From assembly GCF_004010195.1 (NCBI RefSeq), contig NC_057718.1, forward strand, positions 96,557,765 to 96,579,090: a stretch of 21,326 nt of DNA, given 5' to 3'. The notes below the pieces were generated by a model that did no database searches, had not been told where the DNA came from, and saw only the letters and a program-made list of their open reading frames with translations. A program made the translations under genes and the position numbers. Shown here one piece after another: positions 4,632-21,326 of the stretch. Source of the DNA: Chiloscyllium plagiosum. Taxonomy: Eukaryota. Each line of letters starts with the position of its first letter. The first letter of the stretch is position 1.

Positions 4632-5425
4632 ATTGATTGATTTATTGTCACATGTACCTAAGTACAGTGAAAACCTTTGTTTATGAGCAGTATAGGCAGA
4701 TCATAGTAACCAAGAATATACAGATCAAAAAGACTTCGACAAAGACCTACAGGCGACTTTGCACAGGGTATGCGCCAGGCGGTATCAATGTTAGCAAGAT
4801 CAGCAATATTTGAGGCTACAGAGTTCATTTCACAATTTAATAATGGCTGGGAAGAAGCTGTTCTTGAACCCACTGGTGCATGTGTTCAAGCTTCTGTATC
4901 TTCTGCCTGATGGAAGAGGTTGTGGGAGAGCATTGCCGGGGTGGGATGGGTCTTTGATAATGTTAGCAGCCTTTCCACTGCAATGAACCGTGTAAATGGA
5001 ATCCATGGATGGAAGCTTGGCTTCCAGATGGCTTGGGCTGTGCACACTGCCTTCTGCAGTTTCTGACTGTCTTGGGCAGAGCAGTTGCTGTACTAAGCCA
5101 CTCTGCATCCTGCAGAAGTTGGTGAGGGTCCTTATGGACATGGAAAAAGTGAGGACTGCAGATGCTGGAGACTTGAGTCAAAAAGTGTGGCGCTGGAAAA
5201 GCACAGTCAGTCAGGCAGCAGCCGAGGAACAGGAGAGTCAAATTTTCAGGCATTCATGAAGAAGGGCTTATGCCCAAAACTTCAACTTTCCTGCTCTTCC
5301 GATGCTGCCTGGCCTGCTGTGCTTTTCCAGAGCCACACTTTTCGACTTGGTCCTTATGGACATGCAAACTTCCTGAGCCACCTGAGGAAGAAGAGAAATT
5401 GTTGTGCCTTCCTCACTGTCGCATC
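4632..5425 (-). mobile_element. Rex1/Babar-type LINE 3' fragment
   Basis: KAANIIKDPSHPGNALPQPLPSGRRYRSL..FKNSFFPAIIKL and decayed KKAQQ.LFFLR.LRKF; tail ttgattgatttattgtcacatgtac. Confidence 0.8.
5143..5348. mobile_element. Head-to-head inverted dimer of family 1 repeat with perfect 16-bp TSD
   Basis: ggtccttatggacatg at 5127-5142 and 5349-5364; left arm minus with tail, right arm plus without tail. Confidence 0.9.
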
Positions 5426-9220: not shown

Positions 9221-9482
9221 CATATCGTTCAGGTTCCATACTCATTGAAGAGCTTTACTGACATGAATGTGAATAGGGCCTGCACCATCATAGAGAGTGG
9301 ATTTCCCACACTATTCCATGAACTTCTCAGAATACTTCACTTTATCCCTTAAAATATTAAACACAGCTGATTGTTTGGAGAGTCTGGAGGCCAAATCTAA
9401 TTACTCATTTTGCAGAAATATTTAGGTTCTAAACTCACAGGGAATCCAGATGCACTACTGACAACTGTGGTGTTTAAAACTC

Positions 9483-9856
9483 TTCAACTCCCCCTCTCAC
9501 GCCCCCAAGGGCAGACAAGTCCTGGGCCTCGTTTACGGCCAAATCCAGGCCACCACCAACTGGAGGAAGAACGCCTCTCCTTCCGCCTTGAGACCCTTCA
9601 ACCACACGGCATCAACATTGACTTCACTGGTTTCCAAATTTCCCCTCCTACCACCTCATGCCAGATCCAACCCTCCAACTTGACACAGCCCTCTTGACCT
9701 GTCCTATCTGTCCATGTTCCTTCCCACCTATCTGTTCCACACTCCCCTCTGACCTATCACAATCATGCGCCACCTGCCATCCACCTTCCAAGCTACCTAC
9801 TCCTCAGGCCCACCCTCCTATTTATATCTCAGCCCCCTTCCCCCACCCCACATTCC
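9483..9856 (+). mobile_element. Penelope-like element fragment: GIY-YIG endonuclease C-terminus plus 3' UTR, ending at the hammerhead boundary
   Basis: FNSPSHAPKGRQVLGL, frameshift, then LEEERLSFRLETLQPHGINIDFTGF; C-rich UTR homologous to 15835-15921 and to the minus strand of 21060-21326; ends cccacattcc. Confidence 0.82.
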
Positions 9857-11728
9857 CCCGCTCGCTACACCGTGGGACTCAGCCGGTGCTCGCTACACCG
9901 TGGGACTCAGCCTGCACTCGCTCCACGTGGGAATCAGCCCACGCTCGCTCCTCCGTGGGACTCTGCCGGCGGTCGCTCCTCCGTGGGACTCTGCCGGCGG
10001 TCGCTCCTCCGTGGGACTCTGCCGGCGGTCGCTCCACCGTGGGACTCTGCCGGCGGTCGCTCCACCGTGGGACTCTGCCGGCGGTCGCTCCACCATGGGA
10101 CTCAGCCTGTGCTCGCTACACCGTGTGACTCAGCCCGCGCTCTTGCTACACCGTGGGGCTCTGCCTGCAGTCGCTACATCGTGGGACTCAGCCCGCGCTC
10201 GCTCCACCGTGGGACTCAGCCCGCGCTCGCCACACCGTGGGACTCTGCCTGCACTCGCTACATCGTGGGACTCTGCCTGCGCTCGCCACACCGTGGGACT
10301 CTGCCTGCGCTCGCTACATCGTGGGACTCTGCCTGCGCTCGCTACATCGTGGGACTCTGCCTGCGCTCGCTACATCGTGGGACTCAGCCCGCGCTCGCTC
10401 CACCGTGGGACTCTGCCCGCGCTCGCTACATCGTGGGACTCTGCCTGCGCTCGCCACACCGTGGGACTCTGCCTGCGCTCGCTCCACCGTGGGACTCAGC
10501 CCGCGCTCGCTCCACCGTGGGACTCAGCCTGCGCTCGCTCCACCGTGGGACTCTGCCTGCGCTCGCTACACCGTGGGACTCAGTCTGCGCTCGCTCCACT
10601 GTGGGACTCAGCCCGGGCTCGCTCCACCGTGGGACTCTGCCTGCGCTCACTTCACCGTGGGACTCTGCCTGCGCTCGCTCCACCGTGGGACTCTGCCTGC
10701 GCTCGCTCCACCGTGGGACTCAGTCTGCGCTTGCTCCACCGTGGGATTCAGCCTGCGCTCGCTACACCGTGGGACTCAGTCTGCGCTCGCTCCACATGGG
10801 ACTCTGCCTACGCTCGCTACACCGTGGGACTCTGCCTGCGCTCGCTTCACGTGGGACTCTGCCTGCGCTCGCTCCACCGTGGGACTCAGTCTGCGCTCGC
10901 TCCACCGTGGGACTCAGTCTGCGCTCGCTCCACTGTGGGACTCAGCCCGCGCTCGCTCCACCATGGGACTCAGTCTGCGCTCGCTACACCGTGGGACTCA
11001 GCCCGCGCTCGCTCCACTGTGGGACTCAGTCTGCGCTCGCTCCACCGTGGGACTCAGTCTGCGCTCGCTCCACTGTGGGACTCTGCCTGCACTCGCTTCA
11101 CGTGGGACTCAGCCTGCGCTCGCTCCACCGTGTGACTCAGTCTGCGCTCGCTACACCGTGGGACTCAGCCCGCGCTCGCTCCACCATGGGACTCAGTCTG
11201 CGCTCGCTCCACCGTGGGACTCAGTCTGCGCTCGCTCCACTGTGGGACTCTGCCTGCACTTGCTTCACGTGGGACTCAGCCCGCGCTCGCTCCACCGTGG
11301 GACTCAGTCTGCGCTCGCTCCACCGTGGGACTCAGCCCGCGCTCGCTCCACCATGGGACTCAGTCTGCGCTCACTCCACGGTGGGACTCTGCCTGTGCTC
11401 GCTCCACCGTGGGACTCAGTCTGCGCTCGCTACACCGTGGGACTCAGCACGCGCTCGCTCCACCATGGGACTCAGTCTGCGCTCGCTCCACCGTGGGACT
11501 CTGCCTGCACTCGCTCCACGTGGGACTCAGCCCGCGCTCGCTCCACCATGGGACTCAGTCTGCGCTCGCTCCACTGTGGGACTCTGCCTGCACTCGCTTC
11601 ACGTGGGATTCAGCCTGCGCTCGCTCCACCGTGAGACTCAGCCTGCGCTGGCTCCGCCATGGGACTCAGTCGGTGCTCACTCCGCCGTGGGACTCTGTGC
11701 GCACTCACTCCACTGTGGGACTCAGCCT
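9857..11728. repeat. CpG-rich 28-bp minisatellite (VNTR), about 67 units
   Basis: Unit gtgggactc(a/t)gcctgcgctcgctccacc in tandem with no spacers; occasional 27-bp variants. Confidence 0.97.
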
Positions 11729-11899
11729 CCAGTGTACTTCCTATTAAGCCCCATCCCAGGATCTTTTTTATTTCAATCAAGCCATCGCTTGGTTTTCTAA
11801 TTTTGCATCATCACAGGCCCTCATCATCAGTGTCAGTTCCTATAACGGGAACTATGCAGGACTGGTACCTTTTCGCTGTACTCCTGCACTCAAAGGCAT

Positions 11900-12780
11900 G
11901 TGTCAATAAGGTCTAAATCTAAATGTGAACTCTATCAACATCTTTCTTGAAAGTCTCCAATGTTTAGGGCTTCAATAGTATTCCGCGACAGAGAATTCCA
12001 CAAGTGTCCACCATTTTCTGGGTGAACAAATTCCTACTCATCTCTATCTTAAATGTCAACCCCTTATCTTTAGACTGTTACACTGGATGCTGGGTTTCCT
12101 GATCAATATGAACCTCCTTCCTGCATCGACTCTGTCTAATCCTGTCATAATTTTACAGGTTCCTATGAGATTCCTCCCTAATTCTTCTAAACAAGTGGTG
12201 GAGGCTGGTACAATTGCAACAATTTAAGAGGCATTTGGATGGGTATATGAATAGGAAGGGTTTGGAGGGATGTGGGCTGGGTGCTGACAGGTGAGACTAG
12301 ATTGGATTGGGATATCTGGTCAGCATGGATGAGTTGGACCGAAGGGTCTGTACATCTCTATGACTCTATGACTCTATGTAGGGTGAACCAACACAGTCTC
12401 CCTCAGGATGCCAGTCACACCATCTCAGAACTCAGTCTGGTAAAAATTCATTGCACTCCCTCCACATTGAGAACATCCTTCCTGAGATAAGGAGACCAAA
12501 GTTACGCTCAGTGCTTTGGGTGTGGTCTCATCAAGGCCCTGTATAATTGCAGCAAGATATCCCTCCTACTGTACTCAGACCCTATGATGGCTAACCTACC
12601 ATTTACCTCCTTCACCACCTGCTGTACTTGCTTGGGTAGTTTCAGCGACCTGTGTATGATGCCACTGAGGTCTTGTTGCACCTCCTCTTTCTGAATCGAT
12701 GGCCTTCAGATAATAATCTGTCTTCCTTTTTAAGCCACTAAGCTGATCCTTCATTCTAGTTCGCATCACTATCATTAACA
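11900..12780 (-). mobile_element. CR1 LINE ORF2 3' fragment interrupted at 12193-12378
   Basis: Reverse-strand cagagaattccacaag..ttctgggtgaacaaattcct; gataaggagaccaaa..gtgtggtctcatcaaggccctgtataattgcagcaag (LLQLYRALMRPH). Confidence 0.78.
12193..12378 (+). mobile_element. HER1-like CR1 LINE 3' end
   Basis: VVEAGT..FKRHLDGYMNRKGLEG, tail ttggaccgaagggtctgt and (ctatgact)n. Confidence 0.85.
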
Positions 12781-12820
12781 CCGACAAACACTTGCTAGTT
12801 TCTGGATGCACATGTAACAC

Positions 12821-13026
12821 CAGAGTCAATAGATGCAGAGCTGGAAAAGCACAGCAGGTCAGACAGTATCTCATATATTCTGATGGGACTCGGCCTGTGC
12901 TAGCTCCACCGTGAAGCCCGAAACATTGACTTTCCTGCTCCTCTGTTGCCATGTGATCCGCCAAACTTTGCCAGCCTCACATCTATTGACCCTGGCCTCC
13001 GGCATCTTCAGTCCTTATTGTCTCCT
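12821..13026. mobile_element. Degenerate inverted dimer of family 1 repeat carrying one minisatellite unit at its centre
   Basis: Left arm gagtcaatagatg..ctggaaaagcacagcaggtcag, right arm gcccgaaacattgac..catctattgacc..tctcct; degenerate TSD tgcacatgtaacac / tgcacacatgacac. Confidence 0.8.
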
Positions 13027-13257
13027 GCACACATGACACACCTGCAATTTTGAGTTTAACGTGAGGAAATAAAAAGAAGCAATCACATTTTAACTCCAGC
13101 GAGTGAAGAGCATTGGATTGCCAAATGTGAGTTCACTCCTGTTTTATCCCCAGATGGTCAGACGGCTCATCACTTATTGGCCTCAGTTGGCTCACTTTTA
13201 TTGTGGGAATAGTATTTTGTTATATAATATAAATAATATATTTGAATATGTTATGAT

Positions 13258-13479
13258 CCATGAGTTGTTAAAGCGTGGTGCTGGAAAAGGCAGAGCAGGT
13301 CAGTCAGCATCCGAGGAGCAGGAGAGTTGATGTTTCGAGCACAACCCCTCTTCAGTACATATCATATGCCCGAATTGTCAAGTCTCCTGCTCCTCGGATG
13401 CTGACTGACCTGTTGTGTTTTTCCAGCACCACACTTTATCAACTCTGACTCTCTAGCATCTGTAGTCCTCATTTCCTCC
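13258..13479. mobile_element. Inverted dimer of family 1 repeat with ~11-bp TSD
   Basis: tatgttatgat (13247-13257) and tacgttatgat (13480-13490); arms are reverse complements around 13355-13367. Confidence 0.87.
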
Positions 13480-13519
13480 TACGTTATGATTAATAAGATT
13501 TAATATATTATTATTATTG

Positions 13520-13920
13520 CAGGAATAGAGAATTTATAAGGTGTGGTCGGTCACTCTGTCATTCAATTAGATCTGGTTGTAGTCTCAAAACATCATTCCT
13601 AACCTCTGCCAAAACCCTTTAACTCCTTTCTGTGTGAAAACTCTATTTCCTTACGCCTTGAATTAATTCAATGGCTCCACTGGAAGAGAATGCTACAGAC
13701 CAACAATTCCCTGGGAGGAGAACTTTTCTCATCTCTGAAGAGTTCCTCTCCTTTCTATCCTCAACAGGGGACACTCTTATTCTTAAATATTGTCTGCTAC
13801 AGTAGTTCTAGTCTCACCCTTACCAAAGGGAACAGTTTCCAGTTTACATCCTGTTAAACCTCTCCTACGATCCTATATGTATCTCTCAGTTTTCTAATCT
13901 CCTACCTGTACAGGCCAACC
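13520..13920 (-). mobile_element. Old CR1 3' fragment
   Basis: Reverse tail remnants (cattcaattagatc) and ggaagagaatgctacagacc..tttctcatctct..gttctagtctcacc. Confidence 0.55.
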
Positions 13921-14102
13921 TGATCATGGATGTCAGTTCCTATAATGGGAACTATGTAGGACTGATACTTTCAATCCATGGGAGGAAGTGGATTTATAAT
14001 TGATTTGGCTTAAATCTGACTTCCAGTCTAACTCTGAGGGTGCAGTGTCATTAATTTGTTTTTAAAAATTGTTCACAGACTGGTATTTATTGCCCATCCG
14101 CT

Positions 14103-14636
14103 TAGAGTCATAGAGTCATGGAGATGTACAGCGCGGAAACAGACCCTTCGGTCTAACACTTCCACGCCGACCAGATATCTGAAATTAATCTAGTCCTTTT
14201 TCCTAGCACTTGGCCCATATCCTCCTAAACCCTTCCTAATCATGTACCCATCCAGATGTCTTTTAAATGCTGTAACTGTACCAGCCTCCACCGCTTTCTC
14301 TGGCAGCTCATTCCACACAAGTTCCACCCTCTGTGTGAAAACGTTGCCCCTTATGTCTCTTTTATATCTTTCCCTTCTCACCCGAAACCTATGCCCTCTA
14401 GTTCTGGACTCCCCTACCCCAGGGAAAAGACATTGTCTATTTATCCTATCCATGCCCCTCATGATTTTATAAACCTTTATAAGGTCACCCCCTCAGCATC
14501 CGACTCTCCAGGGAAAACAGCCCCAGCCTATTTAACCTCTCCCTATAGCTCAAATCCTCCAACCCTGGCAACATCCTTGTAAATCTTTTCTGAACCCTTT
14601 CAAGTTTCACAACATCTTTCTGACAGCAGGGAGACC
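14103..14636 (-). mobile_element. HER1-like CR1 LINE 3' fragment, relatively young
   Basis: MRGMDRINRQCLFPGVGESRTRGHRFRVRRERYKRDIRGNVFTQRVELVWNELPEKAVEAGTVTAFKRHLDGYM; (agagtcat)n tail. Confidence 0.92.
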
Positions 14637-15834: not shown

Positions 15835-16010
15835 TGCCTTCCTAGCTACCTTCCATCAACCCCTCCAGCCCCACCCTCCCATTTACTGCTCAGCCCCCTT
15901 GGGCAGCCCCTGCCCACATTCTAATGAAGGGCATTTGCTTGAAGCATCGACTCCCCTGCTCCTTGGATCTGCCTGACCTGCTGTGCTTTTCCAGTGCCAC
16001 ACTTTTTGAC
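15835..16010 (+). mobile_element. 5'-truncated Penelope insertion (3' UTR plus tail-less hammerhead repeat) with perfect 14-bp TSD
   Basis: atagattttcctgt at 15821-15834 and 16011-16024; decayed core CTAATGA-agggcatttgctt-GAAGC. Confidence 0.88.
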
Positions 16011-16773: not shown

Positions 16774-17530
16774 GCTCATACAAACTTTCCAGGTTATCCT
16801 GGAGTGCATCAGACCATCGATGTTGTTTCTGAATTGCGAAAGTTATTGCTCAATCGAGGAATATGGTTTTAGCCTGTTCAAAACCCTCTTTGTTAGCAGA
16901 ATGGCTAAGCATTGATATACACTGCCTGAAGTCATACCATTTCTTGTTATCACTAGAAGTGACAGTAAATTTATCACAGCAGCAGGCTTAAAGATAACGC
17001 TACAATAGAGAATGGGACAAAGATGCAAAGGCTCCATTATGTCTGTGAATTGAACAAGATTTAGTTCAGGTTCGGTCACTCAGTTGAACTGGGGGCTTGG
17101 TTCAGTCTCAGAATAATAACAGAGGATGCCAGTGGTTGTTCGACATTTTCCCTTGTGCTGTTGTACATCAGTTCAGAATTCCCAGCATTTTCACTGCCTC
17201 AGTGGAACGGTGTTTGCTTTCTGTTGTTCCATACTCTTATTAGACGCTGTAAATTGTTTGACAGCAATAAATCTGGCAGAGGATGCCATCTGCTTAACAA
17301 AGTTTCTGCTGAGTTCTACAAAATCGATCATATTTTTGGAAAAATTAGAATTTGTGTGTCCGCTACCATGTCCAATTTGACTATACAGGGATTCAATGAT
17401 AGGCTGTTTTAGGGAGGCTTTTGACAAACAGGTAGTTCATGATGTCCTAGACCTGTAAAAGGCCTGATTTGTTTCCTTGTGAATCCCAATCTTAATCACA
17501 ATCCAACCGACTGAACTAAGCCAGAACTGT

Positions 17531-18614: not shown

Positions 18615-19494
18615 AAATGAGGGGAGCTAAATGTGATATCTCCAAGTTTGCTAACAAAGTTGGATAGGAGGGTGAAATGTAAAGAGGATGCAGAGGTGTT
18701 GTGATTTGGACAAGTTGAGTGAGTAGGCATACGTGTGGCAGATGCAGTATGATGTTAATAAATGTGAGGCTGCCCACTTCAGTAGCAAACTCAGGAAGGC
18801 AGATTTTCTGAATGGTCCCAAACTGGGGATGGTGAAGGTGCAGTGTGACCTGGGTGTCCTTGTACACCAGCCGCTGAAAGTAAGTACGCAAGAACAGCAA
18901 GCGATGAAGAGGACTAATGGTACGATGGCCTTCATAGCAAGAGGATTCCAGTAAAGGAGCAGGGATGCCTTGCTCCAATTGCACAGAGGAGAAAGCGAAG
19001 ACTGCAGAGGCTGGAGATCAGAGTCGAGAGTGTAGTCTGGTAAAGCACAGCAGGTCAGGCAGCACCCGAGGAGCAGGAGAATCGATGTTTCAGGCCTAAG
19101 CCCTTCATCAGGAATCCTAATGAAGGGCTTATGCCCAAAAAGTCAATTCCCCTGTTCCTCAGGTGCTGCCTGACCTGCTGTGCTTTTCCAGCACCACACT
19201 CTCAACCCCAATTGCACAGAGCCTTGATGAGACCACACCTGGAATATTGTGCAGAGTTTTGATCTCCTTATCTGAGGAAGGATGCTCTGGCAATGGAGGT
19301 GCAGCGAAGGTTTACCAGACTGATTCCTGAGGTGGCAGGGCTGATGTATGAAAAGAGATTAGATCGGTTAGGACTTTAATCACTGGAGTTCAGAAGAATG
19401 TGAAGGGATCTTATAGAAATCTCTGAAATTCGAACAAGACTTGACAGGGAAAATGCAGGAAGGATGTTCCTCATGATCAGGGGAATCCAGAACC
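18615..19494 (+). mobile_element. CR1 LINE reverse transcriptase fragment split by an inverted dimer
   Basis: ISKFAN..WQMQYDVNKCEAAHF..VQCDLGVLVH..RDALLQLH|RALMRPHLEYC..RRFTRLIPEVAGLMYEKRLDRLGL. Confidence 0.9.
18989..19207. mobile_element. Inverted dimer of family 1 repeat with perfect 14-bp TSD
   Basis: ccaattgcacagag at 18975-18988 and 19208-19221; centre ttcatcagg-aat-cctaatgaa. Confidence 0.92.
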
Positions 19495-21008: not shown

Positions 21009-21326
21009 AGCATCCGAGGAGCAGTAAAATCGACATTTCTGGCAAAAGCCCTTCATCGGGAATACAGGCAGAGAGCCTGCAGGGTGGAAAGATAAGTGAG
21101 AGGAGGGTGGGGGTGGGGAGAAAGTAGCATAGAGCACAATATGTGAGTGGGGGAGGGGATGAAGGTAATAGGTCAGGGAGGAGGATGGAGTGGATAGGTG
21201 GAAAGGAAGATAGGCAGGTAGGACAAGTCATGGGGACAGTGCTGAGCTGGAAGTTTGGAGCTGGAGTGAGGTGGGGGAAGGGGAAATGAGGAAACTGGTG
21301 AAGTCCACATTGATGCCCTGGGGATG
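21009..21326 (-). mobile_element. Penelope-like element 3' region (ORF end, UTR, hammerhead), running off the window
   Basis: Minus strand PQGINVDFTSFLISP, C-rich UTR, then attcCCGATGA-agggcttttgcca-GAAATGTC. Confidence 0.85.

Follow-up and report, generated by a model that had tools for sequence, protein, structure and literature searches.

In the genome of Chiloscyllium plagiosum, a decayed Penelope-like element (PLE) stops at the letter where its hammerhead should start, and a minisatellite follows directly. We sought to examine how a tandem repeat came to occupy this position and what, if anything, the element contributed to it. The window, meaning the whole stretch of 21,326 nucleotides analyzed here, is repeat-rich vertebrate DNA, shark-like by its closest named protein, and contains SINE copies, many short repeats that open with a minimal hammerhead motif, and LINE pieces that we take to be CR1-like from the reading frame at 14190-14492. 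The reading that we favor, at a probability of about 60%, is an ordinary single-locus minisatellite whose seed probably formed when a break was repaired in an old PLE that thereby lost its hammerhead-bearing end. The PLE would have given the break point, and neither the repeat sequence nor its amplification would derive from it.

The junction between PLE and minisatellite

The PLE remnant occupies positions 9483-9856 on the forward strand. Its first part (9483-9697) is a decayed C-terminal end of the PLE open reading frame, distributed over two frames and comprising the tail of the GIY-YIG endonuclease domain: 9483-9554 aligns to residues 400-423, and 9542-9691 to residues 420-469, together the last 70 residues, of P0006, a whale shark protein in which GIY-YIG (355-432) scores above the Pfam cut-off and RVT_1 (E 9e-05) falls below it. 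Through this alignment, the copy displays the C-terminal GIY-YIG endonuclease of endonuclease-bearing PLEs. The remnant itself has no Pfam match, and its reverse transcriptase region is missing by truncation. A comparison of the remnant with longer proteins (0/1) and an Atlas search yielded no usable match, a protein search with the junction reading frame retained 0 of 37 candidates, and the PLE motif has 0 matches each in metagenome, viral, and prokaryote contigs. An extension of the PLE upstream of 9483, to about 9377, was not significant (200/400) and was rejected, and P0001, the top representative match, is a repetitive protein that was set aside as evidence.

The second part (9698-9856) is the PLE 3′ UTR, which is 72-73% identical to sibling copies in the window. 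One comparison copy on the forward strand (15837-16010) runs from the end of the UTR through the hammerhead, with a target-site duplication around it; another, on the reverse strand (21009-21326), holds the end of the open reading frame, the UTR, and the hammerhead. Positions 9784-9855 share 73% identity with 15837-15921, and 9599-9819 share 72% with 21326-21101. Positions 9847-9856 of the window read CCCACATTCC. From the same position the sibling copies run on into the core, whose first letter lies at 15921 (forward) and 21059 (reverse). Position 9856 corresponds to this first core letter, ATT lies at 9852-9854, and the module that would carry the hammerhead is missing. The preliminary description, which had the PLE ending where its hammerhead should start and the array following at once, is borne out.

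The array is a GC-rich minisatellite (68% GC) of 66.9 units of 28 bp at 9855-11728 on the forward strand, as delimited by TRF and unit phasing. TRF reports one array at 9859-11728 with a period of 28, 67.0 copies, and 86% matches. Phasing by unit places the start at 9855, on the letters CC (unit positions 11-12), and the end at 11728 (unit position 13); the left (CC) and right (CCT) ends share one phase. The array overlaps the PLE end by 2-3 letters and has a terminal repeat of 2-3 letters, the left letters of which are common to the PLE end. Ends of this kind are expected when a segment next to a junction is duplicated locally. We estimate that about 3 of the 28 phases would fit by chance.

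Hammerhead-family DNA accounts for 2360 bases, or 12% of the window outside the array, and includes 13 head positions. Upstream of the core, UTR similarity is absent in 9 of the 11 other heads, which begin at the core edge and thereby mark it as the usual boundary of this PLE family; the count of 11 leaves out the head at 2350 because the family's downstream sequence is absent there. At that place (2350-2372), a CTGATGA...GAAAC motif lies in apparently unique sequence within short open frames and may be due to chance. Hammerhead cores are predicted to be intact-like in four of the 11 heads and to be decayed in both long sibling copies. An Rfam search found no hammerhead match and three weak miRNA-family matches, all below the gathering score. 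Target-site duplications of 4 of 10 sibling elements score in the top 0.2% of random pairs. Three further head-to-head hammerhead pairs lie at 5142-5347, 13262-13481, and 18987-19206; the centers of two are rearranged, and two have clear target-site duplications of 14-20 letters. Elsewhere, in non-repeat DNA, an 81-codon stop-free frame at 17191-17436 (reverse strand) has a possible exon look and no match in Pfam, PDB, or Atlas; one weak match from a further PDB search was set aside.

The array might instead have been born independently in a LINE-like fragment, with a later deletion or PLE insertion setting the stump against it, in which case the hammerhead edge would have no causal role. The abundance of hammerhead DNA speaks for this: either end of the array would fall by chance within 10 bases of any of the 13 head positions in 2.6% of cases and within 2 bases in 0.7%, figures that are post hoc and concern one of 241 windows of this genome under scan. 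Moreover, initiation of PLE reverse transcription is possible at internal sites and needs no homology (PMC11167929). The observed match is nevertheless within 2 bases, the phases at the two ends of the array agree, and a second event also fell in a hammerhead core. In the DNA to the left of the PLE, neither an array nor a LINE remnant was found: a degenerate unit considered at 9440-9470 was rejected, with 246 of 638 windows scoring as high, and a LINE continuation was significant for none of 12 LINE-like targets. We consider such a coincidence unlikely, and the repair-junction reading is pursued below.

Source and turnover of the repeat unit

Compared on both strands with eight stretches of PLE or hammerhead sequence, the unit shows no resemblance to any (16 comparisons, shuffle p 0.14-0.94), nor, in an anchored test, to what follows the junction in the 11 heads (1220/2000 shuffles). 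A repeat template inside the element's RNA, as telomerase-like addition would use, has no match in the UTR or the end module. On both strands the array contains 0 CTGANGA and 0 GAAA motifs; lacking a hammerhead core motif, it falls outside the retrozyme definition of 10.64898/2026.07.22.740005. In terms of non-LTR retrozymes, the units carry no type I hammerhead and no homology to the PLE pLTR. The unit pattern also has 0 matches in metagenome contigs.

Adjacent units resemble each other more closely than they do when their order is permuted (0/5000), and the differences between units rise with separation, from 3.7 to about 5.5. The edge units are the most diverged, with 3.4 and 4.3 differences compared to 2.3. 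Similar neighbors and diverged edges are the marks of local turnover in a minisatellite seeded by direct repeats, and this drift of variants, combined with the common phase at start and end, points to ordinary duplication and turnover. A weak 3- and 6-unit periodicity is seen in the distal half of the array (10742-11603), where 27-letter units recur. The preliminary description had suggested reiterative copying by the PLE reverse transcriptase; this mechanism finds no support, given a unit unlike the PLE and hammerhead sequence compared and a drift typical of gradual turnover.

The right flank of the array offers a candidate source for the unit. Positions 11717-11871 (forward strand) represent an old copy of the segment at 13828-13971 (forward strand; alignments, nhmmer E 0.0036), a paralogue with about 300 more LINE-like bases on its left. 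The segment takes in the margin of a CR1-like LINE fragment in antisense orientation, together with about 70 bases beyond it. Between 11729-11871 and 13839-13971, 101 of 130 aligned letters are identical (78%), and the best alignment of the flank to 13828-13971 reaches 12 letters into the last array unit. The end phase of the array is the best of 28 phases for the unit against five LINE-like copies (60/3000 shuffles), compared to 156/3000 against the single paralogue alone; without the anchoring letter, the LINE-origin scores weaken to 182 and 199 of 3000. One frame of the unit has 6 of 13 identical residues at the expected LINE place, evidence that is not independent. A LINE profile search left 11700-11800 undetected. 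The evidence (p about 0.02-0.07) is suggestive of a unit that continues the LINE-like fragment on the right of the array. The pair 11729-11871/13839-13971 is single-copy by read depth at 85% likeness, and could have arisen when a nearby stretch was duplicated into the broken PLE. The flank piece 11809-11864 was considered as an exon and rejected because GT is absent in both relatives and the paralogue.

In another scenario, the PLE reverse transcriptase would have used a foreign template of 28 letters at the target, copying it a single time or several times over, and then jumped to PLE RNA ending at the hammerhead edge. With such a jump during insertion, the PLE body and the seed would have arrived together. 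The array does lie on the side where target priming starts, PMC3846280 describes host DNA captured ahead of the 3′ pLTR in rotifer PLEs, and the upstream stump mirrors the numerous mini-elements that open at the core edge. A degenerate 10/12 direct repeat (9445-9456 and 11728-11738), whose second copy begins exactly at the array end, is a weak candidate target-site duplication around PLE plus array; however, it is not significant (36/400), and its first copy lies 27-38 bases outside the demonstrable PLE start at 9483. Since the PLE sequence compared holds no template for the unit, the homology of the flank runs on into the unit, and the units are heterogeneous with positional drift, we regard this scenario as decidedly doubtful and retain the repair junction as the origin of the seed.

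A single unit in a neighboring hammerhead element

Downstream of the array lies a head-to-head hammerhead mini-element. Its inverted arm (12821-12871, reverse strand, identified by alignment) has lost the inner part, and its direct arm (12880-13029, forward strand) has a disrupted hammerhead core and a shortened stem II, is preceded by ATT at 12877-12879, and shares 68-73% identity with five other arms. The probable left and right target-site duplications, 12809-12821 and 13030-13042, agree in 11 of 13 letters, a match equalled by 3.2% of 5000 random pairs. With its own likely target-site duplication, the element at 12821-13029 is probably a separate insertion and not the lost end of the PLE stump. 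Arms 12945-12996 and 12821-12871 have a common subfamily motif and are only 66% identical, differing mostly by transitions; the core of the left arm is still 93-96% like younger copies.

The core of the direct arm contains a single minisatellite unit with TG at both ends (12884-12913, forward strand). The unit proper, 12884-12911, matches the array consensus at 25 of 28 letters, or 27 of 30 including the flanking TG, a likeness expected by chance in the window at about 1e-7. It is the only strong match outside the array (score 38.6; next 18.9), lies in direct orientation 1156 bases from the array end, and agrees at 26 of 28 letters with the array unit at 11382. A nearby template and microhomology at the junctions are the hallmarks of a templated insertion. 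Because the letters of the lone unit run across the seam of the duplication, its source was most likely an array with two or more units; being a circular permutation that exists only after duplication, it does not represent an independent birth. Starting precisely where the lone unit ends on its right, 12912-12935 matches 11949-11974 in inverted orientation (22 of 23 letters, with a single gap of 3 letters); this may reflect a chance likeness between a LINE piece and a hammerhead arm, or the repair event may have drawn on a second template.

The preliminary description held that the satellite twice occupies the hammerhead position. This stands insofar as the array abuts the core edge, the lone unit interrupts a core, and ATT precedes the core at both sites. 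The junctions and phases differ, however: the lone unit sits 4 letters inside the core and not at its edge, in a phase other than that of the array junction, and the two cases are therefore similar without being the same junction. A further proposal, recombination between the two neighboring PLE copies, is not supported, given the probable separate target-site duplication of the element at 12821-13029 and the 1.1 kb of non-PLE DNA between the two.

A further reading takes the PLE stump and the hammerhead element at 12880-13029 as the two parts of a single element, or as partners in a recombination, with the unit entering the hammerhead first and duplication and later insertions parting the halves. 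We regard this as very improbable. In its favor, both parts are about 28-32% diverged from younger copies, are oriented alike, and border on the same repeat unit; Pen1_Av is known to have a long spacer ahead of its 3′ pLTR (PMC3846280); and part of the unit resembles, by eye, a stem II variant in one contig joint. Against it, the element has a probable target-site duplication of its own, the differing junction phases would need extra deletions at both array ends, and the sequence beyond the boundary at 13029 holds no target-site duplication that pairs with the PLE start.

To place these events relative to other lineages, we compared relatives' reads over 11660-13120 at likeness 85 (4 of the 24 listed runs), an interval that covers only the right flank of the array. 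In relative B, one contig of single-copy depth covers 11675-12222 with 25 differences and continues leftward for 186 more letters; another covers 12535-13013 with 30 differences, its sole gap being 16 letters at 12693. These two contigs show that B carries the last two units of the array as well as the lone unit. Evidence from relative C is weaker, consisting of a contig of depth 5 at 12902-12908 together with a certain unit depth. Both the array end and the lone unit are older than a split of about 5%, and neither an empty nor a single-unit allele was seen within the right-flank interval compared. At 12902, the lone unit of B has the array letter, whereas C. plagiosum and C differ there; a change common to B and C at 12907 conflicts with this signal, possibly through conversion by the array.

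Contig depth at 11670 is 1296 in C. plagiosum (single copy about 12), 290 in B (about 16-20), and 26 in C (about 7-10), figures from the rows listed that do not equate to copy number. Raw reads at 11670 number 23, compared to 0-2.4 in unique bins, about 4000 for the hammerhead arm, and about 40000 for the LINE end. The depth test gave no sign of a dispersed satellite family, for two diverged edge units at 85% likeness, a basis on which diverged arrays elsewhere could be missed. Within these limits, one locus suffices to explain the unit depth, and the array may be larger in C. plagiosum than in B and C.

Proposed course of events and comparison with known systems

The repair-junction reading would involve four steps. 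First, a break at the usual boundary of the family would have removed the end module, the PLE endonuclease possibly cutting at the ATT beside the core, and the stump would have been joined through 2-3 common letters (CC/CCY) to non-PLE DNA, probably a truncated segment from a LINE edge. Second, the first 28 letters past the junction, bounded by CCY and CCT, would have been duplicated, as suggested by the matching phase at start and end. Third, the array grew and drifted in the pattern described above, presumably by slippage, unequal exchange, or conversion. Fourth, a TG-guided template switch may have copied one array unit into the central break of the neighboring head-to-head element, where the insertion is seen today. 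A role for the endonuclease in breaks at the core edge would be a transfer to this family from Anolis, where the PLE protein cuts both strands in vitro at ATT downstream of its own ORF-pLTR junction (PMC11167929).

The preliminary description also envisaged a link between PLE termini and satellite birth. As a statement about place this is plausible, given the nine of 11 heads that begin at the core edge and the ATT at both sites; the mechanisms put forward for it are mostly unsupported. In its strongest form, cleavage by the element, or processing of its RNA, would take place at the edge where its hammerhead begins, the reverse transcriptase or repair would paste short foreign templates there, and satellite seeds would be enriched at such edges across a genome that has very many of them. 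We consider this quite unlikely. Should an enrichment of arrays and templated insertions at the hammerhead edges of PLEs hold true, these sites, in their thousands, would act as recurrent break points and give rise to new repeats; as it stands, this is one locus for which known mechanisms are sufficient.

How minisatellites start is a partly open question, and a survey found that known models explain only 6% of TE-derived human minisatellites (PMC3389668). The locus is a good test case for minisatellite birth, since its junction can still be read, the segment that probably served as the source is preserved, and one unit was inserted later. Among the matches listed in a literature search that left most subscription journals outside, no paper describes a minisatellite that lacks hammerheads and begins at the hammerhead edge of a PLE.

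In the Haber-Louis model, minisatellites are born between short direct repeats of 5-10 bp (PMC6947457, PMC3389668). The array described here resembles these in its whole number of units, short terminal repeat, position at a transposable element, local expansion, and diverged edges; it differs in that its terminal repeat is 2-3 letters instead of 5-10 and in that one side of this repeat comes from a PLE stump, where two unrelated repeats meet. Minisatellites derived from transposable elements are known from Alu, B1, MaLR, and LINE sequence, and they too form single-locus arrays in or at decayed retroelements (PMC3389668, PMC6947457), but here the unit does not come from the adjacent PLE, and the evidence for a LINE origin is suggestive. 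Templated insertions guided by microhomology (PMC8421209) share with the lone unit a short insert copied from nearby, 2-letter microhomology, and fixation in the germline. Those in PMC8421209 are inverted copies within 100 bp, whereas the lone unit is direct and lies about 1.2 kb away from its template.

Animal non-LTR retrozymes and PLE-derived hammerhead satellites (10.64898/2026.07.22.740005) likewise consist of tandem DNA tied to PLE terminal repeats. There, every unit bears a type I hammerhead and has its origin in the pLTR, whereas at this locus the unit has no core motif on either strand and takes the place of the pLTR. Minimal hammerheads occur in PLE termini both solo and as opposed pairs (PMC4209133, PMC8557442; architecture also in PMC3846280), and the family in the window agrees with endonuclease-bearing PLEs that have hammerhead pLTRs in its solo and head-to-head end modules, target-site duplications, and C-terminal GIY-YIG domain (PMC4209133, PMC3846280, PMC8557442). 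At the junction with the minisatellite, by contrast, the body of the element is kept and the end module is missing, the reverse of the usual truncation.
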